64,000 nt of DNA, from positions 6,436-70,435 of the forward strand of contig CAYLWL010000003.1 of assembly GCA_964387675.1 (NCBI GenBank), in the 5' to 3' direction. Below the pieces are notes generated by a model. That model saw only the letters and a list, made by a program, of their open reading frames with translations, did not search any database and was not told where the DNA came from. Each line of letters opens with the position of its first letter. The first letter of the stretch is position 1. Below, one piece after another: positions 1,230 through 62,882 of the stretch. The stretch comes from an uncultured Candidatus Saccharibacteria bacterium. GTDB taxonomy: Bacteria > Patescibacteriota > Minisyncoccia > UBA6257 > 2-01-FULL-56-20. Both the position numbers and the translations under genes were made by a program.

Positions 1230-2702
1230 ATGACACGTTTCTTCGAAATCCTTCCGGGAGCTCTCGCGTGGAGCACCCTAGTTTTGGTGATTGTTTTTTC
1301 GAGGGTTTTGCCCAGCTTTGTTTCTATTTTTATCATACTGTTCGACATTTACTGGCTTCTCAAAACCATATACCTCTCTCTTCATCTGCGAGCCACATTT
1401 ACGGCGATGAAGAAGAATATGAAGATCGACTGGGCAGAGCGTTTGCGAAGGATTCCGCGGTCGCAAGACCTTTACCATTTGATCATCTTGCCGATGTATA
1501 AGGAGCCCTACGAGGTGGTGCGGGAAAGCTTCGAGACCATCCTCGGCGCTCATTACCCGAAAGACAGATTTATCGTTGTTCTCGCCACGGAAGAGCAAGG
1601 AGGGAAAGAGGCGCAAGAAACCGCCAAAAAAATCGAGAAAGAATTCGGCGACGCGTTTTTCAAGTTTTTAGCGATCACGCACCCTGCCGGTCTTCCGGAA
1701 GAAATTCCCGGAAAGGGTTCGAACGAAACATGGGCCGGAAAAGAAGTGAAACGGCTTGTGGTTGATCCTTTGGGGCTGGATTACAAAAAGATACTTGTTT
1801 CCGTTTTCGACGTGGACACACAGGTGTTTCCGGAATACTTCGGACGGCTGGCGTATGTTTTTTTGACCTCGGAGAAACCCTTGCGCGCCATCTACCAGCC
1901 GGTACCGCTTTTCACGAACAACATTTATCGGGCGCCGGCTTTGGCGCGCGTCGTTTCGTTCTCCGCCACGTTTTGGCAGATGATGCAACAGTCGCGGCCG
2001 GAGCGGCTCACTTCTTTTTCTTCGCAGTCCATCCCTTTTCAGGTCTTGGTAGACATCGGTTTTTGGAACACGGACATCGTTTCCGAGGACTCCAGGATTT
2101 TTTGGCAGTGTTTTTTGCACTACGGCGGCGATTTTCGGGTGGAGCCGCTCTTGTACCCGGTTTCGATGGACGCGAACGTTGCCCCGACGTTTTGGGGCAC
2201 GATGAAAAATATTTACAAACAGCAGCGTCGCTGGGGCTGGGGCGTGGAGAACATTCCGTATATGCTCGATGGCTTCAGGAAAAATCCGAACATTTCCCCC
2301 GCTCAAAAGAGATACTGGACGTTCAATGTGCTTGAAGGGTTCCATTCGTGGGCGACGAATTCTTTGATGATCTTCGTGCTTGGCTGGCTGCCGCTCGCGC
2401 TCGGCGGGAAGAGTTTTAACTACACCCTGCTTTCATATAACTTGCCCCAAGTTACCCGGTATATCGTTACCATCTCGATGATTGGCGTGATGAGCTCGGC
2501 GGTTTTGGCGATTCTTTTACTGCCGCCGCGCCCTTCGTGGTTCAAGCCGAAACATTATCTTGTATATTTTTTGGAGTGGATACTGATTCCCATCACGATC
2601 AACGTATTCGGAGCTCTGCCGGGCCTTGAAGCGCAAACAAGGATGATGCTTGGAGGGAAGTTCAGATTGGGATTTTGGGTAACGCCAAAACATAGAGCTT
2701 AG
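1230..2702 (+). CDS. Family 2 glycosyltransferase, processive (cellulose-synthase-like) type, multi-TM
   Basis: 490 aa with N- and C-terminal TM segments. It has a QQRRW motif (QxxRW of processive GT2) and an acidic DxD-like region (FDVDTQ). Confidence 0.7.
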   Translation: MTRFFEILPGALAWSTLVLVIVFSRVLPSFVSIFIILFDIYWLLKTIYLSLHLRATFTAMKKNMKIDWAERLRRIPRSQDLYHLIILPMYKEPYEVVRESFETILGAHYPKDRFIVVLATEEQGGKEAQETAKKIEKEFGDAFFKFLAITHPAGLPEEIPGKGSNETWAGKEVKRLVVDPLGLDYKKILVSVFDVDTQVFPEYFGRLAYVFLTSEKPLRAIYQPVPLFTNNIYRAPALARVVSFSATFWQMMQQSRPERLTSFSSQSIPFQVLVDIGFWNTDIVSEDSRIFWQCFLHYGGDFRVEPLLYPVSMDANVAPTFWGTMKNIYKQQRRWGWGVENIPYMLDGFRKNPNISPAQKRYWTFNVLEGFHSWATNSLMIFVLGWLPLALGGKSFNYTLLSYNLPQVTRYIVTISMIGVMSSAVLAILLLPPRPSWFKPKHYLVYFLEWILIPITINVFGALPGLEAQTRMMLGGKFRLGFWVTPKHRA

Positions 2703-3192
2703 TAGGTGGTAAGTAGTAAGTAGTAGGTGGTAGAATCGAAATATGGCCGAAAAATTGAACATTAAATCCTATAGAGACCTAATCATCTGGCAGAGAACAA
2801 AATCTTCCGCTGTTTTGATATATAAAATAACCGAAAAGTTTCCTACATCCGAGCTTTACGGCATTACGAGCCAAATGCGTCGTGCTGCTGTTTCTATGCC
2901 ATCGAATATCGCAGAGGGATTTAGAAGAAAGTCGGTAAAAGAAAAATTACAATTTTTGCGTATGGCTTACGGATCTGGTGCCGAACTGGAAACTCAACTG
3001 GAAATTAGTCGCGATTTGGGATACTTGAGTGATCAGGATTATAAAAATCTATCTACTGAATTAGACCAGACCATGAAGATGATGAATAGAACAATTAACA
3101 CGCTGGAGAATTAGGTTTGATATAATGAAAGCATCCGGAAACCAATGAAAAAATCAGATTCTACCTACTACCTACTACTTACTACCTACTCG
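2702..3192. mobile_element. Inverted-repeat-bounded cassette carrying a four-helix-bundle gene (MITE-like/IVS-like element)
   Basis: Left arm GTAGGTGGTAAGTAGTAAGTAGTAGGTGGTAGAA (2702-2736). Its reverse complement TTCTACCTACTACCTACTACTTACTACCTAC lies at about 3157-3190. A solo arm copy sits inside uvrC at 57278-57303. Confidence 0.5.
2743..3114 (+). CDS. Four-helix-bundle protein (23S rRNA intervening-sequence protein family; Avd-like fold)
   Basis: 123 aa. Conserved N-terminal motifs L(I)IWQ..., MPSNIAEGF and GSGAELETQLEIS are typical of TIGR02436/PF05635 family proteins. Confidence 0.8.
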   Translation: MAEKLNIKSYRDLIIWQRTKSSAVLIYKITEKFPTSELYGITSQMRRAAVSMPSNIAEGFRRKSVKEKLQFLRMAYGSGAELETQLEISRDLGYLSDQDYKNLSTELDQTMKMMNRTINTLEN

Positions 3193-17644: not shown

Positions 17645-17710
17645 TATCAAGTGTCATAAGTATCAAGGCGATAAGTCCTGACACTTGACACCTGACACCT
17701 GACACGATAT

Positions 17711-19435: not shown

Positions 19436-19564
19436 CGGGGCTGTTGACACTCCTTGCGTTATACCCTATCATTACAGTATCTCTTTAATGGACGTTCTTA
19501 TCGTTAAATAGAGAGCGTTTTCACAAGGATAGCCACCGCCGGGCTACGCCTTGGCGGTTTTTGT

Positions 19565-19666
19565 TAAGCGAAATACTAATATACTAATTCGTGCGAATGA
19601 TACTAATGGATACTAATTCGTATTATTTGTATCATTAGCATGCATTCGTATATTGGTATCACATTT
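19565..19666. repeat. Family G intercistronic palindromic element (copy 1 of 5), ends at rplC start codon
   Basis: GCGAAATACTAATATACTAATTCGTGCGAATGATACTAATGGATACTAATTCGTATTATTTGTATCATTAGCATGCATTCGTATATTGGTATCACAT. Near-identical copies at 24525-24629, 25530-25630 and 33558-33664, and a diverged copy at 61839-61914. Confidence 0.75.
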
Positions 19667-20236
19667 ATGTTAATCGCTCGCAAGCACAAAATGACCCAAA
19701 TTTGGAAGGAGAACACCGTGATTCCCGTCACGGTGCTTAAGGCCGAACCGAATAATGTGGCGATCATCCGTACGAGCGAGAAGGATGGCTATACGGCTCT
19801 CCAGTTGCAGAGCGGGAAAGCGAGAAAAGAATTCGGCAAAAAAGACAAAACTTTGGATATATCGAAATTTAAGACCGGCGACGAGCTCGCGGTCGATTTT
19901 TTTGCCGAAGGAGACACGGTGGCCGTCTCCGGCACCGTGAAAGGCAGGGGATTCCAGGGTACGGTGAAGCGCCATGGCTTCGGCGGCGGACCGAAAACGC
20001 ATGGGCAGAAAAATCGTTTTCGCGCGCCGGGCTCCATCGGTTCCACCGCGTTTCAGCGCGTTGTTCCCGGAAGAAGGATGGCGGGGCACATGGGCACGAA
20101 CCGCGTGACCGTAAAAAATCTGAAGGTAGTTGGCGTGGATAAAGAAAAAGGAATTCTCTTTTTGCGGGGCGCGGTTCCCGGCGCGAGAGGCGGAGTCGTT
20201 GAAATTGTAAAAATCAAAAATCAAAAATCAAAATGA
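19667..20236 (+). CDS. rplC: 50S ribosomal protein L3
   Basis: MTQIWKENTVIPVTVL... Start placed at MLIARKHKMTQIW. Upstream in-frame codons belong to the family G repeat. Confidence 0.9.
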   Translation: MLIARKHKMTQIWKENTVIPVTVLKAEPNNVAIIRTSEKDGYTALQLQSGKARKEFGKKDKTLDISKFKTGDELAVDFFAEGDTVAVSGTVKGRGFQGTVKRHGFGGGPKTHGQKNRFRAPGSIGSTAFQRVVPGRRMAGHMGTNRVTVKNLKVVGVDKEKGILFLRGAVPGARGGVVEIVKIKNQKSK

Positions 20237-20328
20237 CAATGCAAAATGTAAAAATGAATAAATTAAAAGTCGTGTCCGCAGGACCCCATAATTTTGCATT
20301 TTGATATTTACATTTTGCGTTTACCAGC
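20237..20328. repeat. Family F intercistronic element (copy 1 of 2); copy 2 at 24002-24113
   Basis: AAAAATCAAAAATCAAAATGACAATGCAAAATGTAAAA...GTCGTGTCCGCAGGACCCC...ATTTTGCATTTTG contains internal inverted repeats (CAAAATGCAAAAT / ATTTTGCATTTTG). Confidence 0.7.
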
Positions 20329-20982
20329 ATGAAAGCCACCGTTTACAATTTGAAGAACGAAAAAGTGGGCGAGATGGAATTGCCATCGTCGATCTTCGAA
20401 GCGAAGTGGAACCCCGTGCTCGTGGCGCAGGTTTTGCGCGCCCAGCTTGCCAACTCGCGCCGGCCTTGGGCTCACGCGAAAACGAGAGCCGAAGTGCGCG
20501 GCGGAGGCAGAAAACCCTGGAGACAAAAAGGAACAGGCAGAGCGAGGCACGGCTCTACTCGTTCTCCTCTCTGGGTCGGCGGCGGAAAAGCGCACGGCCC
20601 GAACAAACTCCGCGATTATAGCCAGAAAGTCAATAAAAAAATGGCCCGCTTGGCGCTTTTTTCCGCGCTCGCCAAGAAGCTCAAAGAGAACCAGCTCAAA
20701 GTGTTCGAAGACATGAACATTGCGGAGCCGAAAACCAAAGTCCTTTCCGCGACTCTCAAGCATCTTTTAAATTTGAAAAAAGATCACAAGAAGATGGACG
20801 TGCTCATGGTCGCCGACCGAGAGAACGCGAACGTTCGGCGCGCCTCATCTAACCTGGTGAAAGCGAAAACACTCGACGCACAATCGCTTAACATCTACGA
20901 CGTTTTGAACCACAAGAATATTTTCGTCGATAAAGCATCGGTTGGCGCGCTCACGAAACACTATGCTAGAAAACAGAAATGA
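20329..20982 (+). CDS. rplD: 50S ribosomal protein L4
   Basis: RGGGRKPWRQKGTGRARHGS...GGGKAHGP. Confidence 0.9.
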   Translation: MKATVYNLKNEKVGEMELPSSIFEAKWNPVLVAQVLRAQLANSRRPWAHAKTRAEVRGGGRKPWRQKGTGRARHGSTRSPLWVGGGKAHGPNKLRDYSQKVNKKMARLALFSALAKKLKENQLKVFEDMNIAEPKTKVLSATLKHLLNLKKDHKKMDVLMVADRENANVRRASSNLVKAKTLDAQSLNIYDVLNHKNIFVDKASVGALTKHYARKQK

Positions 20983-21058
20983 GAAATGAGACATGAGACA
21001 TGAGAAATGAGGAACGAAATACACGAAACCTAATCCCTCATATCTCATATCTATCATT
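20983..21058. repeat. Family E intercistronic palindromic element (GAGAAATGAG...CTCATTTCTC type), copy 1
   Basis: Copies fill the spacers at 21332-21417, 22240-22314, 23251-23329, 26464-26533, 27102-27196, 27746-27835, 28737-28822 and 29261-29323. A diverged copy is at 28190-28271 and a partial one at 62605-62645. Confidence 0.75.
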
Positions 21059-21331
21059 ATGAATACTTTCATCATCAAAAAGCCATTGATTACGGAACGC
21101 GCGACGAATTTGAGCAAACTCGGCAAATATGTTTTTATGGTTGCCGATTTTGCCACGAAGCCGGAGGTCAAAAAAGCGGTCAAGGAAATTTATAAAGTTG
21201 ATGCCGTTTCCGTGAACATCGTGGTGAAGCCGTCCAAAAAGAAAAGGATGGGATCGCTCAAGGGTCGGCGTAAAGGTTATAAAAAGGCGATTGTTACCCT
21301 GAAGAAAGGGCAGAAAATCGAGATACAGTAA
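21059..21331 (+). CDS. rplW: 50S ribosomal protein L23
   Basis: LITERATNLSKLGKYVFMVADFATKPEVKKAVKEIYKVDAVSVNI. Confidence 0.9.
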   Translation: MNTFIIKKPLITERATNLSKLGKYVFMVADFATKPEVKKAVKEIYKVDAVSVNIVVKPSKKKRMGSLKGRRKGYKKAIVTLKKGQKIEIQ

Positions 21332-21417
21332 GAAACTAGAAATGAGACATGAGAAATGAGGAACGAAATACATAAAACCTAATCTCTCATCTCTAATTTC
21401 TCATATCTATAAAATCA
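21332..21417. repeat. Family E element, copy 2
   Basis: AGAAATGAGACATGAGAAATGAGGAACGAAATACATAAAACCTAATCTCTCATCTCTAATTTCTCATATCT. Confidence 0.75.
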
Positions 21418-22239
21418 ATGAAAACCTATTCACCAACAACTCCATCGAGGCGAAGCATGACCGGCGTTGACTACGGCGCCTTGAGCAAAAAGCAACCCTA
21501 TAAACCGCTTCTTGTTCGGCTCAAATCAAATGCCGGCAGAAACTCGCAAGGGAGAATCACCGTGCGCCACCAAGGTGGAGGCAACAAAAAGCTGTACAGG
21601 ATGGTCGACTTTATGCAGAATACCCTGAATGCCAAGGCGGCTGTGGAATCGATTGAATACGATCCGTACCGGACGGCGTTCATCGCTCTCATCAAATATC
21701 CGAACAACGCGAAGAGTTATATTCTTGCGCCGAATACGCTGAAAGCGGGAGACACCGTTTTGGTGGCCGAAGCGGCGCCCCTCAAAGTCGGTAATCGTCT
21801 GAAGATGAAGAACATCCCCGTCGGTTACCAGGTGCACAGCGCGGAACTTTTGCCGGGACATGGCGGGAAGCTCGCGCGCTCGGCCGGTTCGTACGCCGAG
21901 GTTTTGGCGAACGCCGACGGTTACACGGACTTGAAATTGTCTTCGGGAGAAGTGCGGCGCGTTCCGTGGGAAGGGTTCGCCTCCGTCGGGCAGGTTTCGA
22001 ACGCGGAGCATAATCTTGTCGTTATCGGCAAGGCGGGAAGATCGCGGTGGCTCGGCGTGCGCCCCACAGTGCGCGGAAAAGCGATGAACCCGGTTGATCA
22101 CCCCTACGGAGGAGGCGAAGGGAGCCAGCCGCGCGGCACGAGAAAACCGAAGACCCTGTGGGGCAAGATCACCGGCGGCCATAAAACTCGAAACAAAAAG
22201 AAGTGGTCGAGCAAGATGATAGTTAAACGCAGAAAGTAG
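21418..22239 (+). CDS. rplB: 50S ribosomal protein L2
   Basis: 273 aa. GRNSQGRITVRHQGGG...HPYGGGEG. Confidence 0.95.
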   Translation: MKTYSPTTPSRRSMTGVDYGALSKKQPYKPLLVRLKSNAGRNSQGRITVRHQGGGNKKLYRMVDFMQNTLNAKAAVESIEYDPYRTAFIALIKYPNNAKSYILAPNTLKAGDTVLVAEAAPLKVGNRLKMKNIPVGYQVHSAELLPGHGGKLARSAGSYAEVLANADGYTDLKLSSGEVRRVPWEGFASVGQVSNAEHNLVVIGKAGRSRWLGVRPTVRGKAMNPVDHPYGGGEGSQPRGTRKPKTLWGKITGGHKTRNKKKWSSKMIVKRRK

Positions 22240-22314
22240 AAATGAGGCATGAGAAATGAGGAACGAAATACACAAAACCTAATCTCTCATATCTAATTTC
22301 TCATATCTTTTACC
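22240..22314. repeat. Family E element, copy 3
   Basis: GAAATGAGGCATGAGAAATGAGGAACGAAATACACAAAACCTAATCTCTCATATCTAATTTCTCATATC. Confidence 0.75.
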
Positions 22315-22641
22315 ATGTCCAGAAGTTCCAAAAAGGGTCCCTACGTCGATCCAAAACTCTTAAAAAAGATTTCCAAACTGAAGCCGGAGAGCGCGCCGGT
22401 TATTAAAACGTGGTCCAGAGCATCCGAGATTTCTCCGGAAATGGTTGGTTTTATCATCGGCGTTCACAACGGCAAAGTGTTTACCGAGGTCAGAATTTCG
22501 GAGGATATGGTGGGCCATCGGCTCGGCGAGTTTTCTCCGACGAGAAAATTCGTGCGGCACGGCGGAAAGATACAAAAAGAACTGGAGCAAAAGACCGCGC
22601 AGGCAGCGGCTCCGGCGGCGGCAAAAGAAACCAAAAAGTAA
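22315..22641 (+). CDS. rpsS: 30S ribosomal protein S19 (with C-terminal extension)
   Basis: [15 protein letters not shown]...[13 protein letters not shown]. Confidence 0.9.
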
Positions 22642-22728
22642 TCACTAATAACGCGAATACCGGCAAATAACGCTAAGACGACTCGCATTATTACCTAAAA
22701 ACGATTAGCATTATTCGCGAATACTCCC
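22642..22728. repeat. Cargo-less (empty) copy of the AATAACGCGAATA / TATTCGCGAATACTCC inverted-repeat element that elsewhere carries the GxxExxY gene
   Basis: Both arms face each other with a ~50-bp spacer. The right arm ends at the rplV ATG. Confidence 0.6.
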
Positions 22729-23250
22729 ATGACGAAGCAAACGGCAAAACTGAATTACTTGCGAATGACGCCACGAAAAGTGCGGCTGGTTGCCGATCTT
22801 ATCAAGGGCCTGCCTATTAACGAAGCCGAGGCCCAGCTTTTGACGATCCGCAAAAGAGCTGCGGTGCCGCTGTTGAAACTTCTGCGTTCGGCGATGGCCA
22901 ACGTGAAGAACAATAAAAAGTTGAGCGAAGAGAGATTTTTCATAGAAACCTTGAAGGTGGACGGCGGGCCGATGCTCAAACGGTTCCTTCCGCGCGCGCG
23001 CGGCATGGCAACGCCGATTCAGAAAAAAATGAGCCACGTGACGATGGTGCTCGCGGAGCATCCGGACGCGAAGCCGCCTCGGTTCAAGATCGTAGTTCGG
23101 AAGAAAACCAAACTGCCGCCCGGTTCCGAGGGCCCGGTCCGGAGACAAAAGCCAGAGAGGCCGAAAAAGCCGGAACAGGAGGGAGCGAAACCGAAGTCGA
23201 CCGGTTTCTTCAAGAAACTATTCAGGCGGAAAGCCGGATTCGCTAAATAA
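22729..23250 (+). CDS. rplV: 50S ribosomal protein L22 (with basic C-terminal extension)
   Basis: RMTPRKVRLVADLIKGLPINEAEAQL... Confidence 0.9.
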   Translation: MTKQTAKLNYLRMTPRKVRLVADLIKGLPINEAEAQLLTIRKRAAVPLLKLLRSAMANVKNNKKLSEERFFIETLKVDGGPMLKRFLPRARGMATPIQKKMSHVTMVLAEHPDAKPPRFKIVVRKKTKLPPGSEGPVRRQKPERPKKPEQEGAKPKSTGFFKKLFRRKAGFAK

Positions 23251-23329
23251 GAAAACAGAAATGAGAAAGGAGAAATTAGGAACGCTTAACGACCTCATTT
23301 CTCATATCTAATCTCTCATCTCTAACACC
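23251..23329. repeat. Family E element, copy 4 (diverged)
   Basis: GAAATGAGAAAGGAGAAATTAGGAACG...CCTCATTTCTCATATCTAATCTCTCATCTC. Confidence 0.65.
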
Positions 23330-24001
23330 ATGGGACACAAAATTAATCCATTATCACTACGAGTCGGCGTCACGAAGAACTGGCCAGTCAGATGGTTTAT
23401 TAAAGGTAAGTACGCCAAGTTTTTGGAGGAGGACGAAGCGATACGGAACGTGATCAGGTTGAAAATCGGCCAGGCCGGCATTTCCGCGATCGAGATAGAA
23501 CGAACCCAAGGGAGCGTCAAAGTTTTCATCAAAGCCGCGAGGCCCGGGTTCGTAATCGGCCGAGGCGGAAAAGGCATCGAGGATCTGAACAAAGCAATAG
23601 AGAAGGCCTTGAAAAAGGTCCGCAAAGTAAAAACCGCGATTGCTTTAAGCGTGAACGTGGAGGAATTGAAGAGATCGGAAATCGCCGCGCCGTACGTCGC
23701 CCAGCAAATCGCCTGGGATCTCGAGAAGCGTCTGCCGTTCCGGAGAACGCTGAAAAAATATCTTGAAGGAATTATGCAAAACAGGGAAGTGAAGGGAGCG
23801 AAGATCATGATGTCGGGCAGATTGGACGGCAACGAAATAGCGAGGACGGAGTGGCTGGCCAAGGGGTCATTGCCTCTTCAGACATTCCGCGCCGACATCG
23901 ACTATGGAACATCCACCGCTTTTACGACCTATGGAACAATCGGAATAAAGGTGTGGATATATAAGGGCGAGATATTCGCTGACGCTCAAAATAAAAATTA
24001 A
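23330..24001 (+). CDS. rpsC: 30S ribosomal protein S3
   Basis: MGHKINPLSLRVGVTKNW..., with KH and S3-C domains. Confidence 0.9.
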   Translation: MGHKINPLSLRVGVTKNWPVRWFIKGKYAKFLEEDEAIRNVIRLKIGQAGISAIEIERTQGSVKVFIKAARPGFVIGRGGKGIEDLNKAIEKALKKVRKVKTAIALSVNVEELKRSEIAAPYVAQQIAWDLEKRLPFRRTLKKYLEGIMQNREVKGAKIMMSGRLDGNEIARTEWLAKGSLPLQTFRADIDYGTSTAFTTYGTIGIKVWIYKGEIFADAQNKN

Positions 24002-24113
24002 AAAATCAAAAATCAAGATGACAATGCAAAATGTAAAATTAAATAAATTAAAAGTCGTGTCCGCAGGACCCCTAAATTTTGCATTTTGATCTTTGCATTT
24101 TGCATTTACTGAT
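24002..24113. repeat. Family F element, copy 2
   Basis: Near-identical to 20237-20328. Confidence 0.7.
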
Positions 24114-24524
24114 ATGTTGATTCCAAAGAAAGTAAAACATCGTAAGTGGCAGAAAGGCCGCTCGAAGAGACGGCTTGTGGAAACGCGCGGTCTTACTTTG
24201 AATTATGGCCAATATGGTTTAAAATCCCTGGAAGCGGCGTGGCTCAATTCTCGCCAGATCGAGGCGGCGCGGAAAACCATAACGAATTTCTTGAAGCGCA
24301 GCGGCCGCCTGTGGATCAGGGTTTTTCCGGATAAACCGATCACTCAGCAAGCTCCGGAGAAAACGTTGGGCGGCGGCAAGGGCAGTGTCGAATATTATGT
24401 TTTTCCGGTGAGGCCGGGGAGGATTATTTTCGAGATTGACGGCGTTCCCAAAGAAACCGCCACCGAGGCGCTCCGGCTGGCTTCTTATAAACTGCCGTTC
24501 AAAAGCAGAATCATAACCAAATAA
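24114..24524 (+). CDS. rplP: 50S ribosomal protein L16
   Basis: MLIPKKVKHRKWQKGR... Start at the ATG at 24114. The ORF track's TTG at 24093 lies in the repeat. Confidence 0.9.
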   Translation: MLIPKKVKHRKWQKGRSKRRLVETRGLTLNYGQYGLKSLEAAWLNSRQIEAARKTITNFLKRSGRLWIRVFPDKPITQQAPEKTLGGGKGSVEYYVFPVRPGRIIFEIDGVPKETATEALRLASYKLPFKSRIITK

Positions 24525-24629
24525 CAAGCGAAATACTAATATACTAATTCGTGCGAATGATACTAATGGATACTAATTCGTATTATTTGTATCATTAGCA
24601 TGCATTCGTATATTGGTATCACATTATTC
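24525..24629. repeat. Family G element, copy 2
   Basis: Near-identical to 19565-19666. Ends at the rpmC start. Confidence 0.75.
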
Positions 24630-24836
24630 ATGAGAAAGAAAGAAATCCAAGAATTAAAAATGAAGCCCGCGGCCGAGCTCCAAAAGTTCCTGAAAGACGG
24701 ACGGGAACGGCTCCGCTCGTTGAAGTTCGATTTGGCCGCAGGCAAAGTGAAAAACGTGAAGGAGCTCCGCACGCTCAAAAAAGACCTCGCGAGAGCCAAC
24801 ACGTTCATACACGCTTCCCGGTCGGGGAATAAATAA
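24630..24836 (+). CDS. rpmC: 50S ribosomal protein L29
   Basis: MRKKEIQELKMKPAAELQKFLKDGRERLRSLKF. Confidence 0.85.
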   Translation: MRKKEIQELKMKPAAELQKFLKDGRERLRSLKFDLAAGKVKNVKELRTLKKDLARANTFIHASRSGNK

Positions 24837-24840
24837 ACTT

Positions 24841-25107
24841 ATGGAACAAGTCAAAAAAAGAAAAATAACCGGCGTCGTGGTCAGCGACAAAATGATGAAA
24901 ACGAGAGTGGTTGAGGTCAAACGATCGAAGAAGCACCCGAAGTATCTCAAGTACTACACGGTGACGACCAAGTTTAAAGCCCATGACGAAAAGAACGATT
25001 ACCACGTGGGCGATGTGGTTATTATGGAAGAAACCAGGCCTCTCTCGAAAGAGAAGAGGTGGCGCATTATTGGAGTAGTCGCTAATAATGCGAATAAAAA
25101 GAGGTAA
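24841..25107 (+). CDS. rpsQ: 30S ribosomal protein S17
   Basis: ITGVVVSDKMMKTRVVEVKR...YHVGDVVIMEETRPLSKEKRW. The last 8 codons (ANNANKKR) are encoded by the AATAACGCGAATA repeat arm. Confidence 0.9.
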   Translation: MEQVKKRKITGVVVSDKMMKTRVVEVKRSKKHPKYLKYYTVTTKFKAHDEKNDYHVGDVVIMEETRPLSKEKRWRIIGVVANNANKKR

Positions 25108-25160
25108 TAACGCGAATCCGCGTTATTAAATAAAAATTAGCGTTATTCGCGAATACTACA
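25078..25160. repeat. Second cargo-less copy of the AATAACGCGAATA/TATTCGCGAATACT element, overlapping the rpsQ 3' end and ending at the rplN ATG
   Basis: GCTAATAATGCGAATAAAAAGAGGTAATAACGCGAATCCGCGTTATTAAATAAAAATTAGCGTTATTCGCGAATACTACA. Confidence 0.6.
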
Positions 25161-25529
25161 ATGATCCAAGAACGCTCAATACTCAAGGTGGCCGACAACA
25201 GCGGCGCGAAGATCGTGCGGTGCTTTAGAATTCTGGGCGGCACAAGAAGGCGATACGCGAGGATCGGCGATATCATCGTGACCTCCGTTCAGGTGGCCGA
25301 GCCGCGCAAGACCATCAAGAAAAAAGACATTGTGAAGGTTCTGATCGTTCGGCAGAGAGCTCCGTTGCGGCGCAAAGACGGCTCGTATATCCGTTTCGAC
25401 GACAACGCCGTCGTGGTGATAGATGCCAAGCGCGAGCCGGTCGCGACAAGAATCTTCGGCCCGATGCCGCGCGAGCTCAAAGAAAAAGGGTTCGATACCC
25501 TTATGACAATGGCGGAAGAAATCGTATAA
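25161..25529 (+). CDS. rplN: 50S ribosomal protein L14
   Basis: MIQERSILKVADNSGAK... Confidence 0.95.
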   Translation: MIQERSILKVADNSGAKIVRCFRILGGTRRRYARIGDIIVTSVQVAEPRKTIKKKDIVKVLIVRQRAPLRRKDGSYIRFDDNAVVVIDAKREPVATRIFGPMPRELKEKGFDTLMTMAEEIV

Positions 25530-25630
25530 GCGAGATACTAATATACTAATTCGTGCGAATGATACTAATGAATACTAATTCGTATTATTTGTATCATTAG
25601 CATGCATTCGTATATTGGTATCACATGTAT
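25530..25630. repeat. Family G element, copy 3
   Basis: Near-identical to 19565-19666. Confidence 0.75.
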
Positions 25631-25936
25631 ATGAACATTAAAAAAGGTGACCAAGTAAAAATTCTTTCCGGAAAAGACCGGGGCAAAACCGGAGCCGTGT
25701 TAAACGTTTTCCCGAAAGACGGGAAAATTTCGGTGGAAGGATTGAACGTGTATAAAAAACGGGTGCGCCCGAAGCGCCAGGGGCAGAAGGGCGAAACGGT
25801 TTTAGTGCCGAGGTCTTTTTACGCTTCCAAGGCGATGGTGATCTGTTCGAATTGCAAAGAGCCGGCTCGTTTGGGTCATCGTTTGGAAGGCAAGAAGAAG
25901 GTCCGCTACTGCAAAAAGTGTAAAGCGGCGATATAG
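25631..25936 (+). CDS. rplX: 50S ribosomal protein L24 with C-terminal C4 zinc-ribbon-like extension
   Basis: KOW motif KKGDQVKILSGKDRGKTG. The C-terminus CSNCKEPARLGHRLEGKKKVRYCKKCK replaces the usual L24 C-terminal half. Confidence 0.85.
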   Translation: MNIKKGDQVKILSGKDRGKTGAVLNVFPKDGKISVEGLNVYKKRVRPKRQGQKGETVLVPRSFYASKAMVICSNCKEPARLGHRLEGKKKVRYCKKCKAAI

Positions 25937-25944
25937 TAAGAAAC

Positions 25945-26463
25945 ATGACACAGCACAAATCTAAACAATCAAATCTTGGCTTTGAAGCAACAAAGTTTCT
26001 TGAGAAAGTTGTGATTGACGTTGGCGTGGGACGCTTGAGCGGCCAGCCGAATTTCGAAGAAAAAGCGCTCTCTCAAATCACGAAAGATCTCTCTCTCGTT
26101 GCTGGTCAGAAGCCGCAGGTGAGGCGCGCGAAGAAGTCAATCGCCGGATTCAAAACGAGGGAAGGCCAGATCGTCGGTTTAAGAGTAACGCTCCGAAAAA
26201 AGAAAATGGTTGATTTTTTCGAGCGGCTCATTAGAATAGTATTGCCGCGCGTGCGAGATTTCAGGGGGCTCGATCCGAACATTATCGATCAAGGCGGCAC
26301 GTTGAACATCGGCCTCAAGGAATCAGTTGTTTTTCCGGAAATCAACCCGGAGCAGTCGCCCATTTCATTTTCGCTGGGAATCAGCGCGGTTCCAAGAATA
26401 AAAAATCGGGAAAAATCAGTCGAACACTTCAGAGCCCTCGGGGTACCATTAAAAAAGAAATGA
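25945..26463 (+). CDS. rplE: 50S ribosomal protein L5
   Basis: FEATKFLEKVVIDVGVG...RDFRGL. Confidence 0.9.
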   Translation: MTQHKSKQSNLGFEATKFLEKVVIDVGVGRLSGQPNFEEKALSQITKDLSLVAGQKPQVRRAKKSIAGFKTREGQIVGLRVTLRKKKMVDFFERLIRIVLPRVRDFRGLDPNIIDQGGTLNIGLKESVVFPEINPEQSPISFSLGISAVPRIKNREKSVEHFRALGVPLKKK

Positions 26464-26533
26464 GAAATAAAGAAATGAGAAATTAGGATTTTCGTCCTCA
26501 TGTCTCATCTCTTATGCCTCATATCTTGTCACC
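26464..26533. repeat. Family E element, copy 5 (diverged)
   Basis: GAGAAATAAAGAAATGAGAAATTAGG...CCTCATGTCTCATCTCTTATGCCTCATATC. Confidence 0.65.
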
Positions 26534-26719
26534 ATGCCTAAAACATCCTGGATAGCAAGAAGTAAAAAACAGCCGAAACATAAAACACGCGACGTGAATC
26601 GGTGTTTTCGATGCGGCAGAAAACGCGGCTATATGCGGGATTTTAATCTTTGCAGGATTTGTTTTCGGGAAATGGCGAGCCATCAAGAGATACCCGGAGT
26701 AAAAAAAGCAAGCTGGTAA
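26534..26719 (+). CDS. rpsN: 30S ribosomal protein S14 (type Z, zinc-binding)
   Basis: 61 aa. [23 protein letters not shown]. Confidence 0.9.
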
Positions 26720-26723
26720 ATTC

Positions 26724-27101
26724 ATGTATTACGATTTATTGCCAAAACTGAAGAATGCCGAAGCCGCGGGGAAAGAAACGGTTTTGGCGCCTTTTTCCAA
26801 GATGGATCTGAGCGTCTGCAAAATTCTTGCCGACGCCGGTTATATCAAAGACGCCAAAGAAAAAACACTGGGCCGCAAGAGATTTATCGAAATCCGGATG
26901 TTCGGCAGAAGAAAGCGCCTCATCAACGGCGTGAAGATTATGAGCAAGCCAAGCAGGCATTTGTATTTTTCGTATACCGACCTCCGCCCGGTGAAAAGCG
27001 GCCACGGGATCGGCGTCATATCGACTTCCAAAGGGATGATGACGCAAAAAGAAGCCAGAAAAAAGAAGGTCGGCGGGGAATATTTGTTCCAAATATGGTG
27101 A
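26724..27101 (+). CDS. rpsH: 30S ribosomal protein S8
   Basis: YYDLLPKLKNA...ILADAGYIKD...GIGVISTSKGMMT. Confidence 0.9.
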   Translation: MYYDLLPKLKNAEAAGKETVLAPFSKMDLSVCKILADAGYIKDAKEKTLGRKRFIEIRMFGRRKRLINGVKIMSKPSRHLYFSYTDLRPVKSGHGIGVISTSKGMMTQKEARKKKVGGEYLFQIW

Positions 27102-27196
27102 ATAGCTAGAAATCAGATATGAGATATGAGACATGAGAAATGAGGGACGAAATAAAAACCTAATTTCTCATTTCTAATTACTCATCTCTAACTACC
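27102..27196. repeat. Family E element, copy 6
   Basis: GATATGAGATATGAGACATGAGAAATGAGGGACG...CCTAATTTCTCATTTCTAATTACTCATCTCTAAC. Confidence 0.75.
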
Positions 27197-27745
27197 ATGA
27201 GCCGTTTAATCAAAAAACCAGTTCAAATATTGCCCGGCGTCCAGGTAAAAATAGACGGCGACTTTTTGGTTTTTAACGGCCCGAAAGGCGAGAACCGGCT
27301 CAGGATACCGGCATCGGTTGAGTTAAAAATTGACGCGGAGAACATTTGGCTCACGGCGAAAACGGAAAGCGAGCTCAATAAGGCCGTGTACGGAACAACG
27401 TGGTCGCTCATCAGGAATTCCGTGAATGGCGCCGCGAACGGCTTTATGAAGGTTTTAGAGATTGAGGGGGTTGGCTACCGCGCGGCTCTTGAGGGCAAGG
27501 AATTGGTTCTCTCGCTGGGTTATGTGAATCCGGTGCGCGTCAAGGTGCCGGACGGCATCGCAATCGAGGTTGAGAAAAACGTCATAAAAGTTTCCGGACA
27601 CGATAAAGATTTAGTCGGCAGAACCGCCTCGACTATCCGGGCCCTCAAAAAACCGGAGCCGTACAAGGGAAAGGGAATCCGATATCGGGGAGAAATTATC
27701 CGGAGGAAGGTCGGCAAGAAAGCGGGAGCGACGGCCGCCACATAA
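27197..27745 (+). CDS. rplF: 50S ribosomal protein L6
   Basis: MSRLIKKPVQILPGVQVKIDGDFLVFNGPKGE. Confidence 0.9.
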   Translation: MSRLIKKPVQILPGVQVKIDGDFLVFNGPKGENRLRIPASVELKIDAENIWLTAKTESELNKAVYGTTWSLIRNSVNGAANGFMKVLEIEGVGYRAALEGKELVLSLGYVNPVRVKVPDGIAIEVEKNVIKVSGHDKDLVGRTASTIRALKKPEPYKGKGIRYRGEIIRRKVGKKAGATAAT

Positions 27746-27835
27746 GAAATAAGACATGAGAAATGAGAGATGAGGAACGGAACACGTAAAAACCTAATTT
27801 CTCATTTCTAATTACTCATCTCTATTATATATACC
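27746..27835. repeat. Family E element, copy 7
   Basis: GACATGAGAAATGAGAGATGAGGAACGG...CCTAATTTCTCATTTCTAATTACTCATCTCTATT. Confidence 0.75.
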
Positions 27836-28189
27836 ATGAACCCCAGAAAACGTCTCAACAAAATACGGACGCGACGAACGGCAAGAACACGGGCCAAGAT
27901 TTTCGGCACGGCGAAAAAGCCGCGTCTTGCCGTGTCGCGCAGTAACCGTTATATTTATGCCCAGTTGATCAACGACGAAGCTGGACGAACCGTGGTTCAT
28001 GGTTCGGGCCAGGAGGTGAAGGGCAAGAAGCCGAAAACGGAAGTTGCCGCCTTGGTGGGAGAGTTGATCGGAAAAAGGGCGGTGGAAAAAGGGGTTACCT
28101 CGGCGGTTTTTGATCGCCGCGCGTATAAGTATCATGGTCGAATTAAGGCGCTGGCCGAAGGAGCGCGAAAGGCCGGACTTAAGTTATAA
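27836..28189 (+). CDS. rplR: 50S ribosomal protein L18
   Basis: [23 protein letters not shown]. Confidence 0.9.
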
Positions 28190-28271
28190 GACATCAGAAA
28201 CTAGACATCAGAAATCAGAACGTAGCCAACCCAAACTAATTACTGATAACTGATAACTAATCCCTATTAAT
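28190..28271. repeat. Diverged family E-like element (CATCAGAAAT...CTGATAACTGAT variant)
   Basis: GACATCAGAAACTAGACATCAGAAATCAGAACG...TAATTACTGATAACTGATAACTAAT has the same architecture with CAG/CTG in place of GAG/CTC. Confidence 0.55.
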
Positions 28272-28736
28272 ATGTTTCGACGTCCCGAGAAAAACTTAAA
28301 AAAAGAAGAGTTCAAAGATAAGGTGTTGGATCTGCGGCGGGTTACTCGCGTTGTTGCCGGAGGAAAACGCTTTCGTTTTCGCGCCACCGTGGTGCTTGGC
28401 GATGAGAAAGGCAGGGTGGGCATAGGCGTGGCGAAGGGGCTCGATGTCGCTCAATCCGTGGCGAAAGCGAAAACGGCGGCAAATAAGAATATGATGAGGA
28501 TTCCCCTTAAAGACGAACGGACGATAGCTCACGAGGTGTACGCGAAATACAGCGCCGCCAAGGTGCTCTTGAAGCCCGCCGGTTCCGGCCACGGTCTCCG
28601 GGCCGGAGGAGCGGTGCGTTCCGTGTTGGCCTTGGTCGGCATAAAAGACGCTACCGCGAAATGTCTTGGCAGGACCCCCAACAAACTGACGAATGCCATG
28701 GCAACGCTCGAGGCGTTGAAAAAATTAAAAGCATGA
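28272..28736 (+). CDS. rpsE: 30S ribosomal protein S5
   Basis: RVTRVVAGGKRFRFRATVVLGDEKGRVGIGVAKG. Confidence 0.9.
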   Translation: MFRRPEKNLKKEEFKDKVLDLRRVTRVVAGGKRFRFRATVVLGDEKGRVGIGVAKGLDVAQSVAKAKTAANKNMMRIPLKDERTIAHEVYAKYSAAKVLLKPAGSGHGLRAGGAVRSVLALVGIKDATAKCLGRTPNKLTNAMATLEALKKLKA

Positions 28737-28822
28737 AAAGGAATTAGACGAGAGACATTAGACATTAGGAACGACTTACATAAAACCTAATTTCTCATTT
28801 CTAATTACTCATCTCTATTACC
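28737..28822. repeat. Family E element, copy 8 (occupies the position where rpmD/L30 is normally found)
   Basis: AGACATTAGACATTAGGAACGACTTACATAAAACCTAATTTCTCATTTCTAATTACTCATCTCTATT. Confidence 0.7.
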
Positions 28823-29260
28823 ATGCAGCTGCACGAGCTCAAAAAATTCAGAAATAAAAACAAAAAACGCATCGGCCGCGGCGGCAAGCGCGGCAGTTAT
28901 TCGGGGCGCGGCGTGAAGGGTCAGAAATCGAGAGCGGGGAGGAGGATTCGCCCGGCAGAAAGAGATTTGATTATACGCCTGCCGAAGCGGCGCGGTTTTC
29001 GAAACAAACCCAAGAGTCCCAAGCCGATGGTTTTCAACCTGAAAGATTTGTCGAAGTATATCAAGACCCATTCCGAGAAAGGGAAAAGTTTGGTTATCGA
29101 TAAAACGTTCTTGCGGGAAGTCGGTCTTGTGCCGACCCATTATCGCGGTGAAGTGAAAATCTTGGGAATGGGAGAGGTGTATGCCCCCGTGAAAGTTCAA
29201 GGATTAAAATTGTCGAAGAGTGCTAAGATGAAGGTTGAGAAAGTAAGATATGAGAAATGA
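28823..29260 (+). CDS. rplO: 50S ribosomal protein L15
   Basis: KRIGRGGKRGSYSGRGVKGQKSRAG. Confidence 0.9.
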   Translation: MQLHELKKFRNKNKKRIGRGGKRGSYSGRGVKGQKSRAGRRIRPAERDLIIRLPKRRGFRNKPKSPKPMVFNLKDLSKYIKTHSEKGKSLVIDKTFLREVGLVPTHYRGEVKILGMGEVYAPVKVQGLKLSKSAKMKVEKVRYEK

Positions 29261-29323
29261 GATATGAGGGACGGAACGTATAAAAACCTAATTTCTCATC
29301 TCTAATTACTCATCTCTATTGCC
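29261..29323. repeat. Family E element, copy 9
   Basis: GATATGAGAAATGAGATATGAGGGACGG...CCTAATTTCTCATCTCTAATTACTCATCTCTATT. Confidence 0.75.
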
Positions 29324-33664: not shown

Positions 33665-35110
33665 ATGCTTGACGACCTCATTAACGAACGGTTAAAAAAA
33701 CTCGACGAGATCAAGAAGGCCGGCCTTGATCCGTATCCTGCGAGCGCCGCGAGAACCTTGGAAATTGCGGAGGCGCGCAAGAAGTTTGACGAGTTGAGCG
33801 CGAGCAAAAAGAGCGTGGTGTTGGCGGGGCGCCTTATGAGTATGCGGGATCAGGGCAATATTTCTTTTTTGGATCTGGCCGACGAGAGCGGGAAAATCCA
33901 GATCGTTTTCAAAAAGGATATTCTGTCGAAGTTCGATTTCTGGAAAGATGTTTTGGATATAGGCGATTTCGTTGAGGCCGGCGGCGTTCTTTTTAAGACG
34001 CAGAAAGGCGAGGAAAGTTTGGAGGTCCACGATTTTCGCATGCTCACTAAATCGCTTCGTCCGATACCGAGCGAGTGGTACGGCGTGCAGGATATAGAGA
34101 CACGCCTTCGCAAGCGGTATTTGGATTTGATCGCCAACAAGGAAACGCGGGAGTTATTCAGAAAAAAAGCCGTTTTCTGGCAGACCATTCGGAATTTTAT
34201 GATCAGGCAGGGATTTTTGGAGGTGTGGACGCCGGTTCTCGAAAACATTCCCGGCGGCGCGGACGCCGAGCCGTTTGTTACTCACCACAATGCTCTAGAC
34301 AGGGATTTTTACCTGCGCATTTCGCTCGAATTGCCGCTCAAGCGACTGCTTGTCGGCGGCTACGACAAGGTCTTCGAAATCGGCCGGCTTTTCAGAAACG
34401 AGGGTATCGACCGCGAGCATTTGCAGGAATATGACGATATGGAATTTTACTGGGGCTACGCCGATTACAAAGATGGCATGAAGTTTGTGGAAAAGTTGTT
34501 CAAGGCGGTCGTTAAAAACGCCGTCGGTTCGATGGAAACCGAATATGAGGGCGCCAAAATCAACTGGGACGGGAAGTGGCCAAAAGTTGATTATTTCTCG
34601 GCGTTCAAAAAAGAAGCGGGCTTGGATTTGAACAAAGTTAATGAAGATGCGTTAAGAAAAAAAGCTCGGGATTTGGGGGTTGCCGTTGACGTTACGTCGG
34701 GCAAGGGGCGACTCATAGACGCGATTTACAAAAAAACCGTAAGGCCAAAACTAATCCAGCCGTGTTTTTTGGTCGGCCATCCGGTGGAAATATCGCCCTT
34801 GGCGAAAGCGGACTCCAAGAATCCCAAGAAAGTTTTGCGTTTTCAGGTTGTGGCGGGAGGCACGGAATTGGGTAACGGTTTTTCAGAGCTCAATGACCCG
34901 ATTGATCAAAAAGAGCGTTTTCAGGCGCAAATGAAGTTGCGCGAAGCTGGCGACAAGGAGGCGCAGATGCTGGACGAGGATTTTGTGGAAGCGTTGGAGT
35001 ACGGCATGCCACCGGCGGTGGGCTTCGGCGTGAGCGAGCGACTGTTCGCGGTGTTGATGAATAAGCCCGTGAGAGAGACGGTGATTTTTCCTCCGATGCG
35101 TTTGGAGTAA
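33665..35110 (+). CDS. lysS: Lysyl-tRNA synthetase (class II)
   Basis: OB anticodon-binding N-terminus. Class II motifs FRNEG, and motif 3 near ERLFAVLMN. Confidence 0.9.
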   Translation: MLDDLINERLKKLDEIKKAGLDPYPASAARTLEIAEARKKFDELSASKKSVVLAGRLMSMRDQGNISFLDLADESGKIQIVFKKDILSKFDFWKDVLDIGDFVEAGGVLFKTQKGEESLEVHDFRMLTKSLRPIPSEWYGVQDIETRLRKRYLDLIANKETRELFRKKAVFWQTIRNFMIRQGFLEVWTPVLENIPGGADAEPFVTHHNALDRDFYLRISLELPLKRLLVGGYDKVFEIGRLFRNEGIDREHLQEYDDMEFYWGYADYKDGMKFVEKLFKAVVKNAVGSMETEYEGAKINWDGKWPKVDYFSAFKKEAGLDLNKVNEDALRKKARDLGVAVDVTSGKGRLIDAIYKKTVRPKLIQPCFLVGHPVEISPLAKADSKNPKKVLRFQVVAGGTELGNGFSELNDPIDQKERFQAQMKLREAGDKEAQMLDEDFVEALEYGMPPAVGFGVSERLFAVLMNKPVRETVIFPPMRLE

Positions 35111-35111
35111 T

Positions 35112-35572
35112 CGCGAATAACGCGAATAATCGGATGAATAACGCGAATAGTAAAATAGTCCTGCCAGAATTAAGTTACTCCATAATCGGAGCCGCCTTTA
35201 GAGTTTTTAATGAATTGGGGTGGGGATTTTCAGAAAAACATTATCAAGGTGCGCTCGCGAAGGAATTAGAAGATGCGGGTCTGCTATTTCGCCGAGAGGT
35301 TTATATCCCCTTCACTTACAAAAGTTCAACCATAGGTCGTTACTTTGCCGATTTCATTGTTAACGATAAGATTCTCCTAGAACTTAAAGTAGTTCCAAAA
35401 TTTGGATACGTTCATTTACATCAGGCATTGGGTCACTTGCATAGTGCAAAGTTGAAACTAGGAATATTAATCTACTTTACACGCGAAGGAATAAAGTATC
35501 GGAGGGTTGTTAATCCGGATGTATAATAATTCGCGTTATTTAATTAAAGATTCGAGTTATTCGCGATTACTC
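35112..35572. mobile_element. Inverted-repeat-bounded cassette carrying a GxxExxY (PD-(D/E)XK) gene
   Basis: Left arm CGCGAATAACGCGAATAATCGGATGAATAACGCGAAT contains the cargo start codon. The right arm is its reverse complement (ATTCGCGTTATTTAATTAAAGATTCGAGTTATTCGCG) and ends at the ATG of the next gene. Empty copies are at 22642-22728 and 25078-25160. Confidence 0.55.
35134..35526 (+). CDS. GxxExxY family protein (PD-(D/E)XK nuclease fold)
   Basis: 130 aa with a GALAKELEDAG motif. The N-terminal MNNANSK is encoded by the repeat arm. Confidence 0.8.
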   Translation: MNNANSKIVLPELSYSIIGAAFRVFNELGWGFSEKHYQGALAKELEDAGLLFRREVYIPFTYKSSTIGRYFADFIVNDKILLELKVVPKFGYVHLHQALGHLHSAKLKLGILIYFTREGIKYRRVVNPDV

Positions 35573-35573
35573 C

Positions 35574-60830: not shown

Positions 60831-60983
60831 ATGGGCGGCGTACCGGTAAAACATCACTCAAAAGGAAAAGTAGGCCGGAGACGGTCTCATTTGGCGCTCA
60901 AAAAGCAGCGTCTTTTCGTTTGTGCAAACTGCGGCGGGCCAAAGGTGGCGCATCGGGTTTGCAGACAGTGCGGGAAGTCGTAG
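60831..60983 (+). CDS. rpmF: 50S ribosomal protein L32 (zinc-binding form); below the 60-aa ORF-track cutoff
   Basis: Manually translated: MGGVPVKHHSKGKVGRRRSHLALKKQRLFVCANCGGPKVAHRVCRQCGKS. It matches the bacterial L32 pattern RR.H.AL......C.NCG.PK..HRVC..CG. Confidence 0.8.
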   Translation: MGGVPVKHHSKGKVGRRRSHLALKKQRLFVCANCGGPKVAHRVCRQCGKS

Positions 60984-62604: not shown

Positions 62605-62691
62605 AGAGTAGAAATGAGATATGAGAAATGAGGGTTTTTGAATCCTTATCTCCGACTTTGACCACGACTGGTTTATGAGTATAATGTAGGT

Positions 62692-62880: not shown

Positions 62881-62882
62881 CC

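Follow-up and report, generated by a model that had tools for sequence, protein, structure and literature searches.

Introduction

The early region of phage T7 carries an RNase III hairpin between successive cistrons of a long polycistronic transcript, Correia elements in mRNA are cut by RNase III, and DNA-level roles have been proposed for repetitive extragenic palindromes and bacterial interspersed mosaic elements (REP/BIME). The intervening sequences (IVS) of rRNA are stem-loops excised by RNase III, sometimes together with an open reading frame (ORF) of the 23S_rRNA_IVP family, and both IVP ORFs and short IVS-like insertions have been reported in rRNA genes of the Candidate Phyla Radiation (CPR) (PMC11270868). 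The short tandemly repeated repetitive (STRR) sequences of cyanobacteria are hairpins of tandem 7-bp repeats in intergenic and intercistronic positions, with one example lying between hupS and hupL, and a role in transcript stability or translational coupling has been proposed for them (PMC2670836). STRR hairpins between cistrons are the nearest described phenomenon to the elements analyzed here, a set of palindromic repeats, above all family E, that separate the genes of the S10/spc ribosomal-protein operon in a 64-kb stretch (the window) of CPR contig CAYLWL010000003.1. The explanation we favor, at a probability of roughly 0.55, is that E is a young, genome-specific, non-autonomous palindromic repeat of an STRR/MITE/IVS-like class (MITE, miniature inverted-repeat transposable element) that has colonized stop-start junctions, where it is co-transcribed and tolerated.

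Family E shares with STRR the tandem 7-bp units that form hairpins between cistrons. It differs in its host, which is a CPR bacterium and not a filamentous cyanobacterium, in its unit sequences, in being a discrete stop-to-start element with a conserved loop and a very high density in a ribosomal-protein operon, and in that some elements of the window are linked to ORF-carrying cassettes. REP/BIME elements and MITEs (Correia/NEMIS of Neisseria, enterobacterial ERIC) are likewise short, non-coding, multicopy, imperfect palindromes that are co-transcribed and appear in lineage-specific bursts. Unlike them, E has arms of tandem heptamers and a precise stop-to-start placement in an essential operon, with no transposase or REP-associated tyrosine transposase (RAYT) in view; no consistent target-site duplication was seen at its low-complexity ends. 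Membership of the REP/BIME class was rejected: E has no conserved GTAG-type head, and the cognate RAYT (an IS200/IS605-like TnpA) was not identified in 10 scanned window ORFs. E is MITE-like in being short, non-coding, and multicopy with terminal inverted repeats; as to an autonomous partner, the sister family R has a form that carries a GxxExxY PD-(D/E)XK ORF of putative catalytic role, and none was found for E in the window or the relatives.

Like the IVS of 23S and 16S rRNA, E is an extended stem-loop of sporadic distribution in a highly expressed transcript, and the IVP genes of the window lie between inverted 7-mer arms; unlike the IVS, it lies in mRNA operons between protein-coding genes and carries no ORF. 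The T7 early sites also place one hairpin between successive cistrons, but each T7 site has a unique, conserved sequence and a defined internal loop, whereas E is a variable-arm repeat family absent from relatives. An analogy with integron attC sites was rejected by inspection (universal operon gene order, no GTTRRRY core at the ends, no integrase in view).

Hairpins at the junctions of the S10/spc operon

The + strand between 19.6 and 30.6 kb of the window carries the S10/spc operon from L3 to SecY in the order L3, L4, L23, L2, S19, L22, S3, L16, L29, S17, L14, L24, L5, S14, S8, L6, L18, S5, L15, SecY. The L30 gene is missing, as is typical of the CPR. The host is a Liptonbacteria-like CPR metagenome-assembled genome (MAG) of a tiny groundwater bacterium with a minimal genome. 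Normally, few stretches of a bacterial genome are packed as tightly, or coupled as closely in translation, as this operon. In this organism, which has a minimal genome and makes no use of Shine-Dalgarno (SD) sequences, hairpin inserts of 53-112 nt are found at 16 of the 19 junctions. Family E occupies 10 junctions and three other hairpin families occupy 6, with 4-8 nt at the remaining 3 (L29/S17, L24/L5, and S14/S8). A first-pass annotation of the DNA, which had E filling every spacer, therefore overstated its reach.

The window sequence is identical in an NCBI MAG contig (JACQKV010000017.1, assembly GCA_016204365.1, which sources name Candidatus Liptonbacteria) and in several per-run Logan assemblies, so the repeats are not an assembly artefact. 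Logan contigs from the same organism tend to break inside the repeats, and the elements may explain the fragmentation of short-read assemblies at CPR ribosomal-protein operons. Three of these contigs (L002-L004) end at window positions 21343, 24071, and 22767, inside or near spacer repeats. The spacer elements could also be one cause of the ribosomal-protein gene losses that have been reported for MAGs.

Family E

The ten E spacers (63-95 nt), at the junctions already named by the first-pass annotation, can all be aligned as one family with a conserved loop (GGAACGAAATACAnAAAACCTAAT). The copies are listed with the minimum free energy (MFE, kcal/mol) of the predicted fold and its z score against dinucleotide shuffles.

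20975..21058, + strand: E copy 1, L4/L23; 5' heptamer arm starts in the last L4 codons; MFE -18.2, z -3.65
21332..21417, + strand: E copy 2, L23/L2; MFE -16.9, z -3.66
22240..22314, + strand: E copy 3, L2/S19; closest to copy 2; MFE -14.4, z -2.44
23245..23329, + strand: E copy 4, L22/S3; flipped core ATTAGG..CCTCAT; MFE -16.1, z -2.63
26454..26533, + strand: E copy 5, L5/S14; inverted relative to the others; MFE -19.1, z -3.24
27102..27196, + strand: E copy 6, S8/L6; MFE -23.0, z -3.85
27740..27835, + strand: E copy 7, L6/L18; MFE -22.2, z -4.76
28189..28271, + strand: E copy 8, L18/S5; CAG/CTG variant; MFE -10.9, z -3.10
28737..28822, + strand: E copy 9, S5/L15; 5' arm drifted to TAG units; MFE -13.7, z -2.00
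29236..29323, + strand: E copy 10, L15/SecY; 5' arm overlaps the L15 3' end; MFE -20.5, z -1.85
62605..62651, + strand: partial E copy after rnc; 5' arm and a short mini-hairpin

The 5' arm consists of tandem heptamers (GAGAAAT / GAGACAT / GAGATAT ... GAGG), the conserved loop reads AACGAAATACAnAAAA, and the 3' arm (CCTAATTTCTCATTTCTAATTACTCATCTCT) is complementary to the 5' arm and stops a few bases short of ACC-ATG. The ends of the element are (T)AAGAAAT... and ...CTCTATTACC, the repeat units are of the GAGAAAT/CTCATTT type, and TRF reported a period of 7 or 14 in every arm. The family is palindromic and non-coding, with no ORF in any of its 10 full copies or in the partial copy, whose presence after rnc had also been noted before. 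With at most two mismatches, CCTAATNTCTCATNTCT had 38 matches against 0.10 expected from shuffles and ATGAGAAATGAGG had 35 against 1.89. All core-motif matches but one fall in the E spacers or the partial copy. A match near 4630 is a chance match within a gene.

The copies share not only their arms but also a non-repetitive 20-nt loop and tail, which indicates that they arose by copying and not independently. Neighboring copies are the most similar to each other, pointing to local spread or gene conversion. Eight of the ten lie one way round, the L5/S14 copy is fully inverted, and the L22/S3 copy has its core flipped; the existence of at least one inverted copy shows that copying takes place at the DNA level. 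The CAG/CTG variant described earlier at L18/S5 was seen again, with both arms changed in concert. Downstream of the partial copy, at 62692-63179, lie a 62-aa ORF and a gene for a ParE-like toxin (62883-63179), probably a toxin-antitoxin pair.

The 5' arms often start within the upstream gene. The conserved L15 C terminus (..EKAGGxV) is replaced by ..EKVRYEK-stop encoded by the arm, L4 gains three residues from an E arm, and repeat units encode short tails on L4, L3, and S17. The N termini of all downstream proteins are intact and conserved.

Distribution among relatives

A genome scan with L2 gave 76 relatives (62-80% L2 identity, ≤73% over concatenated ribosomal proteins), whose loci carry L-numbers as labels (L007, L018, L051, and so on). 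Most relatives have 1-20 nt at the same junctions. Long spacers fill 8-15 of the 19 junctions in 12 relatives scattered over the tree, compared with 16 of 19 in the window, and long-spacer genomes often adjoin sister taxa with almost none (window 16, L007 1, L068 8, L048 12; L051 13 versus L045 3; L013 15 versus L019 3). The 13 genomes with at least 8 long spacers (the window and the 12 relatives) have z < -2 in 107 of 150 spacers and a dominant 7-nt period in 93 of 150; genomes with few long spacers have unstructured spacers with a median z of 0. The unit sequences differ by genome (ggagaat, gtagaaa, atctcaa, cgtaagc, gccacta, gaatcat, aatcgcc, and others), as do the occupied junctions.

Family E was not found in the 76 relatives (best local score ≤32). 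A metagenome scan with the E 3' arm returned only two unrelated low-complexity (CTCATTT)n stretches, and scans of viral contigs with E motifs returned nothing or a chance match within a gene. The nearest L5 relative (80% identity) has a (CTCCTGA)n family before L24 and 27 nt at L5/S14. Homologues of the other families of the window occur in distant relatives, for the most part at junctions that are not orthologous. An Rfam 15 scan of the 64-kb window at gathering thresholds gave two tRNAs, with no E match and no rRNA; an exact-protein look-up of two larger window proteins gave no record, and the literature searched contained no description of such elements in the CPR.

Structured spacers are found at 14 of 19 operon junctions compared with 11 of 48 other co-directional junctions of the window (p = 2e-4, about nine-fold). 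Those outside the operon lie near translation genes: before S12, before tuf, and at tuf/S10, greA/lysS, and L32/nusB/rnc. The patchy distribution, the genome-specific families, the differing junctions, and the overwritten upstream coding ends are best fitted by a selfish REP-like repeat, one of the options first put forward for these spacers. On this reading, CPR genomes remain open to bursts of selfish repeats even though they are streamlined.

Folding of the spacers as RNA and as DNA

Structure prediction, proposed earlier as a check, gave a hairpin in every E spacer. Each folds as one imperfect hairpin of about 13-25 predicted pairs with a 1x1 mismatch at about every seventh position, an MFE of -8.9 to -23 kcal/mol, and z of -1.85 to -4.76 against dinucleotide shuffles. 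The stems start -3 to 13 nt past the stop codon, and the paired part of the 3' arm finishes 0-21 nt before the ATG, which corrects the earlier description of an element that ends at the start codon. A generic sliding-window hairpin scan did not discriminate these elements, and an ungapped palindrome finder misses the imperfect E stems.

The complement folds better than the mRNA strand in 180 of the 227 long spacers of all genomes, with a mean MFE of -22.7 versus -18.6 kcal/mol and 821 versus 324 G-U pairs. Among the ten E copies the corresponding means are about -23 and about -16 kcal/mol. In the sense strand, the spacers are rich in A and poor in G (A 36, T 26, C 21, G 17%), and single mismatches in the stems are mostly A-A, A-C, and C-A. 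A palindrome that is better as DNA than in the transcript argues against selection for maximal stability of the mRNA stem, and the weaker sense fold fits erosion, or selection, toward an open, G-poor initiation region. Mutation bias is a doubtful source of the asymmetry because sense-strand deamination would give G-U pairs in the sense fold, the opposite of what is seen. Covariation among nine E copies (1 compensatory pair of 14, with a positive covariation term) is uninformative because the copies are too similar.

Translation initiation

None of the 20 operon genes and 5 of the 49 remaining genes of the window have an SD 4-mer core (GGAG/GAGG/AGGA) at -17..-4, against a background of 11%. 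The 3' end of 16S rRNA lies outside the window. In the 76 relatives, SD 4-mers precede about 10% of genes (92 of 931 short spacers and 10 of 242 long spacers), and Tsurumaki et al. 2022 (PMC9297842) report a subgroup of Parcubacteria that lacks the anti-SD motif. Starts lie in an A-rich, G-poor context, often ..AACC-ATG. The first-pass annotation took E to replace the SD sequence; with SD motifs at background in the window and in its relatives, with or without elements, this lineage has no SD to replace. The same annotation had held that function would give way to neutral spread if related genomes showed these spacers without repeats and this organism used normal SD sequences elsewhere; the former was found in the relatives and the latter was not seen.

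Predicted accessibility of the AUG is 0.46 at both long (element) and short spacers, and the suggested role of E as a translational insulator found no direct support. The -15..-1 segment is predicted to be unpaired at 0.50 with elements versus 0.61 at compact junctions. The operon is a natural test case for SD-less initiation at internal cistrons and for the structure that is tolerated at starts.

Three other roles for the E spacers were rejected. None is among the terminator-like sites, of which there are 16 versus a shuffle expectation of 16.9, and none resembles a promoter. Coupling through a small ORF fails because the L4/L23 element has a short ORF that ends in ATGA at the L23 start, an arrangement not shared by the other copies.

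Other hairpin families of the window

Three more families fill the remaining long junctions of the operon.

19566..19662, + strand: ATACTAAT hairpin before L3
24528-24624: ATACTAAT copy, L16/L29
25530-25625: ATACTAAT copy, L14/L24
33558-33660: ATACTAAT copy, greA/lysS
61839-61912: ATACTAAT copy, nusB/rnc
20209..20325, + strand: AAAATCA/TGCAAAATG hairpin, L3/L4; 5' units encode the L3 tail NQKSK
23988-24110: second AAAATCA/TGCAAAATG copy, S3/L16
22642..22728, + strand: R family (CGCGAATAA) hairpin-only element, S19/L22
~25085-25160: second R hairpin-only copy, S17/L14

The ATACTAAT family has the strongest folds (MFE -33 to -37 kcal/mol, z about -6.4). Its copies are identical or near-identical over about 87 nt, the pre-L3 copy matching the L16/L29 copy exactly, and elements with the same ends (GATACCAATATAC...GTATATTGGTATC) lie at other junctions in L062, L033, L063, L018, and L051. 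Copies of the R family also occur in L051. The R copy at S19/L22 matches the L051 S14/S8 element (score 67) and the L051 S19/L22 element (68) alike, so the similarity is at the level of the family, and orthologous conservation at S19/L22 was rejected.

Between S10 and L3 (17711-19666) lie two genes, one for a methyltransferase (18083-18670) and one that is AdoMet-decarboxylase-like (19079-19435). Upstream of the ATACTAAT element and L3 are a strong promoter-like site (TTGACA-17-TATCAT, 19444-19472) and a terminator-like hairpin (19535-19558), which may form a leader or attenuator.

Gene-carrying cassettes and RNase III

Inverted ends of the same kind also flank genes in the window.

35106..35573, + strand: R-family inverted ends (35106-35133 and 35527-35573) around a GxxExxY / PDDEXK_3 gene (35134-35526)
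2700..3190, + strand: arms 2700-2733 (TAGTAGG) and 3161-3190 (CTACCTA) around a 23S_rRNA_IVP four-helix-bundle gene (2743-3114)
60982..61392, + strand: arms 60982-61013 (AGCAAAG) and 61366-61392 (CTTTGCT) around a second 23S_rRNA_IVP gene (61020-61370), between L32 and nusB
61915..62604, + strand: complete RNase III gene (rnc), candidate processing enzyme; TIGR02191, 250 bits

The GxxExxY gene of the window (130 aa; TIGR04256, Pfam PDDEXK_3) lies between lysS and a cytidylyltransferase-like, FAD-synthetase-related gene. GxxExxY genes are bracketed by the same inverted ends in 5 of 5 CPR genomes (the window and four that were fetched) and in four contexts, always co-oriented with their neighbors: lysS and the FAD synthetase-like gene, a release factor gene and ftsE, genes E and F of a type II secretion system, and an MFS gene and that for PolX. 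The ends are GGAGTAATCGCnAATAAyGCrAAT ... ATTyGCrTTATTnGCGATTACTCC-ATG (also written GGAGTAATCGCG...CGCGATTACTCC), with GCGATTACTCC-ATG at the 3' side. The 5' end commonly provides the TAA stop of the upstream gene, and the 3' end runs directly up to the following ATG. The hairpin-only R elements of the window and of L051 align with these ends, which makes R the ORF-less relatives of a widespread cassette. Inverted arms likewise flank 4 of 4 IVP genes examined (two in the window and two in other CPR contigs), and one of the homologues occupies the same L32-IVP-nusB-rnc position in its contig. No ORF-carrying form of E was found in the window or the relatives, and tblastn of the window GxxExxY and IVP proteins against the operon loci of the relatives found none.

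These observations tie GxxExxY and 23S_rRNA_IVP, two large uncharacterized families, to inverted-repeat cassettes at stop-start junctions. They also permit a tentative and more far-reaching proposal, in which the hairpins would be ORF-less remnants of an unrecognized class of mobile cassettes: inverted arms around a GxxExxY nuclease or IVP gene that home to the stop-start junctions of SD-less CPR operons. Survival of the cassettes would depend on the arms, which would pair in the mRNA, loop out the insert, possibly allow its excision by RNase III as in rRNA IVS, and hold the upstream stop beside the downstream start so that essential operons keep their termination-reinitiation coupling. Were this so, two very large families of orphan proteins would acquire a biological role, and rRNA intervening sequences and the mRNA hairpins of this genome would be one phenomenon.

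RNase III also enters the strongest alternative to a tolerated repeat, namely that the hairpins are selected intercistronic RNA devices serving either maturation by RNase III to stable mono- or oligocistronic mRNAs, as at the T7 early sites, or a structure-mediated translational coupling without SD, in which the stem keeps stop and start together and ribosomes that terminate melt its base and re-initiate. We judge it unlikely, though worth keeping in view. The position of the stems, close to both the stop codon (-3 to 13 nt) and the ATG (0-21 nt), would suit such a device, but the E stems are of modest strength (-9 to -23 kcal/mol) and broken by a mismatch roughly every 7 nt, the sense fold is systematically weaker than the antisense fold, and covariation is minimal at 1 compensatory pair of 14. 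The enrichment in the ribosomal-protein operon and beside other translation genes, together with the 8:2 orientation bias of E, could mark selection, yet most relatives, including close neighbors in the tree, manage with spacers of 1-20 nt, and both families and junctions vary between genomes. A complete rnc gene, related cassettes carrying the ORF type of the rRNA intervening sequences that RNase III excises, and the proposal that cyanobacterial 7-bp STRR hairpins at hupS-hupL stabilize transcripts or couple translation (PMC2670836) speak for it; against it, the elements damage upstream C termini and leave the -15..-1 segment less accessible (0.50 versus 0.61). Cleavage of the stems by RNase III would plausibly be a consequence of the elements and not the reason for them.

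Heptamer arrays outside the hairpins

Period-7 arrays dominate all tandem repeats of the window, and some stand alone within genes. A perfect (AGCAAAG)x4.3 array in fusA (13209-13238) lengthens a loop of the EF-G G-domain by 5 residues; it occurs at the same site in L018 and not in L007, L035, L032, L051, or L033. AGCAAAG is also the unit of the IVP cassette arms at 60982-61392 and of an array upstream of S12 (11962-11992). Four arrays lie in frame in a 425-aa ORF whose uvrC-like assignment is a guess from its sequence: AGGGTCA (56854-56883), GACAAGG (56980-57010), TACTACC (57280-57304), and TTGGAAA (57477-57510). Solitary in-gene arrays indicate that some heptamer-amplifying process acts genome-wide.

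That process might by itself account for the hairpins with no mobility at all, if slippage of the polymerase on 7-nt units and template switching or hairpin-templated repair made the families in place, repeatedly. The prevalence of period-7 arrays, the solitary coding arrays in fusA and the uvrC-like ORF, and the unit-wise variation of whole arms, as in the CAG/CTG variant, speak for it. It is nevertheless quite improbable because three observations need whole-element copying: the E copies share a non-repetitive 20-nt loop and a tail, the ATACTAAT copies are identical or nearly so over about 87 nt, and homologous families sit at different junctions in distant genomes. Copying of whole elements is thus needed as well as amplification, since loops and tails are shared.

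A role of the palindromes as DNA, whether as sites for nucleoid proteins, gyrase, or recombination proteins or as cruciforms affecting replication or transcription, is very improbable: the palindrome is better as DNA than as a sense RNA hairpin and at least one copy is inverted without apparent harm, but the families have no protein-site-like motif in common, placement follows stop and start codons and not DNA landmarks, and no gene context supports it.

The proposed tolerated repeat and the evidence against it

The favored explanation, a non-autonomous repeat that is tolerated between cistrons, would work as follows. The class would consist of inverted arms, mostly of tandem 7-nt units, in operon junctions of Paceibacteria-type CPR bacteria. 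The arms would grow through 7-mer slippage, and the element would be mobilized in trans or through recombination, possibly by the activity of a cassette nuclease. Transcribed within the ribosomal-protein mRNA, the imperfect stem would bring the downstream start near the upstream stop. The element would be tolerated because initiation in this lineage needs no SD and the AUG remains no less accessible than in compact relatives, and RNase III would cut the stems as it does in rRNA intervening sequences.

Several points weigh against this account. Neither a transposase or RAYT nor a target-site duplication was found, and E has no known master copy with an ORF, so that mobility is inferred from distribution only; the scan against Pfam and NCBIfam gave no TnpA-like gene among 10 window ORFs, and the alignments show no consistent direct repeat at the element ends, which are of low complexity. 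The roughly nine-fold enrichment in the operon and the 8 of 10 E copies in one orientation could reflect selection in a highly expressed mRNA. The concerted change of both arms in the CAG/CTG variant indicates that the palindrome is actively maintained. Identical 7-mer arrays standing alone in fusA and the uvrC-like ORF hint at a mutational process and not at discrete insertion. Finally, the data from this genome are one 64-kb window, and the long-contig relatives reach at most about 73% ribosomal-protein identity.

Additional repeats

Another element, with inverted ends CCCGTTAGAAGC...GCTTCTAACGGG that abut an ATG, was seen at different ribosomal-protein junctions in four genomes (L018 16267-16398, L048 11804-11953, L051 9927-10000, and L094 1075-1106). 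Its 5' end is preceded, a few bases away, by a second ATG, and the element appears to insert right after a start codon and to supply its own ATG. The 20-bp perfect palindrome CCTGCCTGCCGGCAGGCAGG occurs in the window at 10342-10361, 10390-10409, and ~16359-16378 and is near-identical in the S3/L16 spacer of L017 and the S5/L15 spacer of L048, both distant relatives. Palindromes of the type TTTCCGTTATAACATAATATTAT... lie at 36021-36056 and 52553-52594, one between convergent genes and the other before a 1215-aa ORF at 52788, and may be bidirectional terminators. Heptamer arrays of the TGACAC(C/T) type precede S10 (17651-17710) and greA (33040-33101) and are found in L088 (5960-6000); the array before greA is conserved in a Liptonbacteria genome (GCA_001818625.1).

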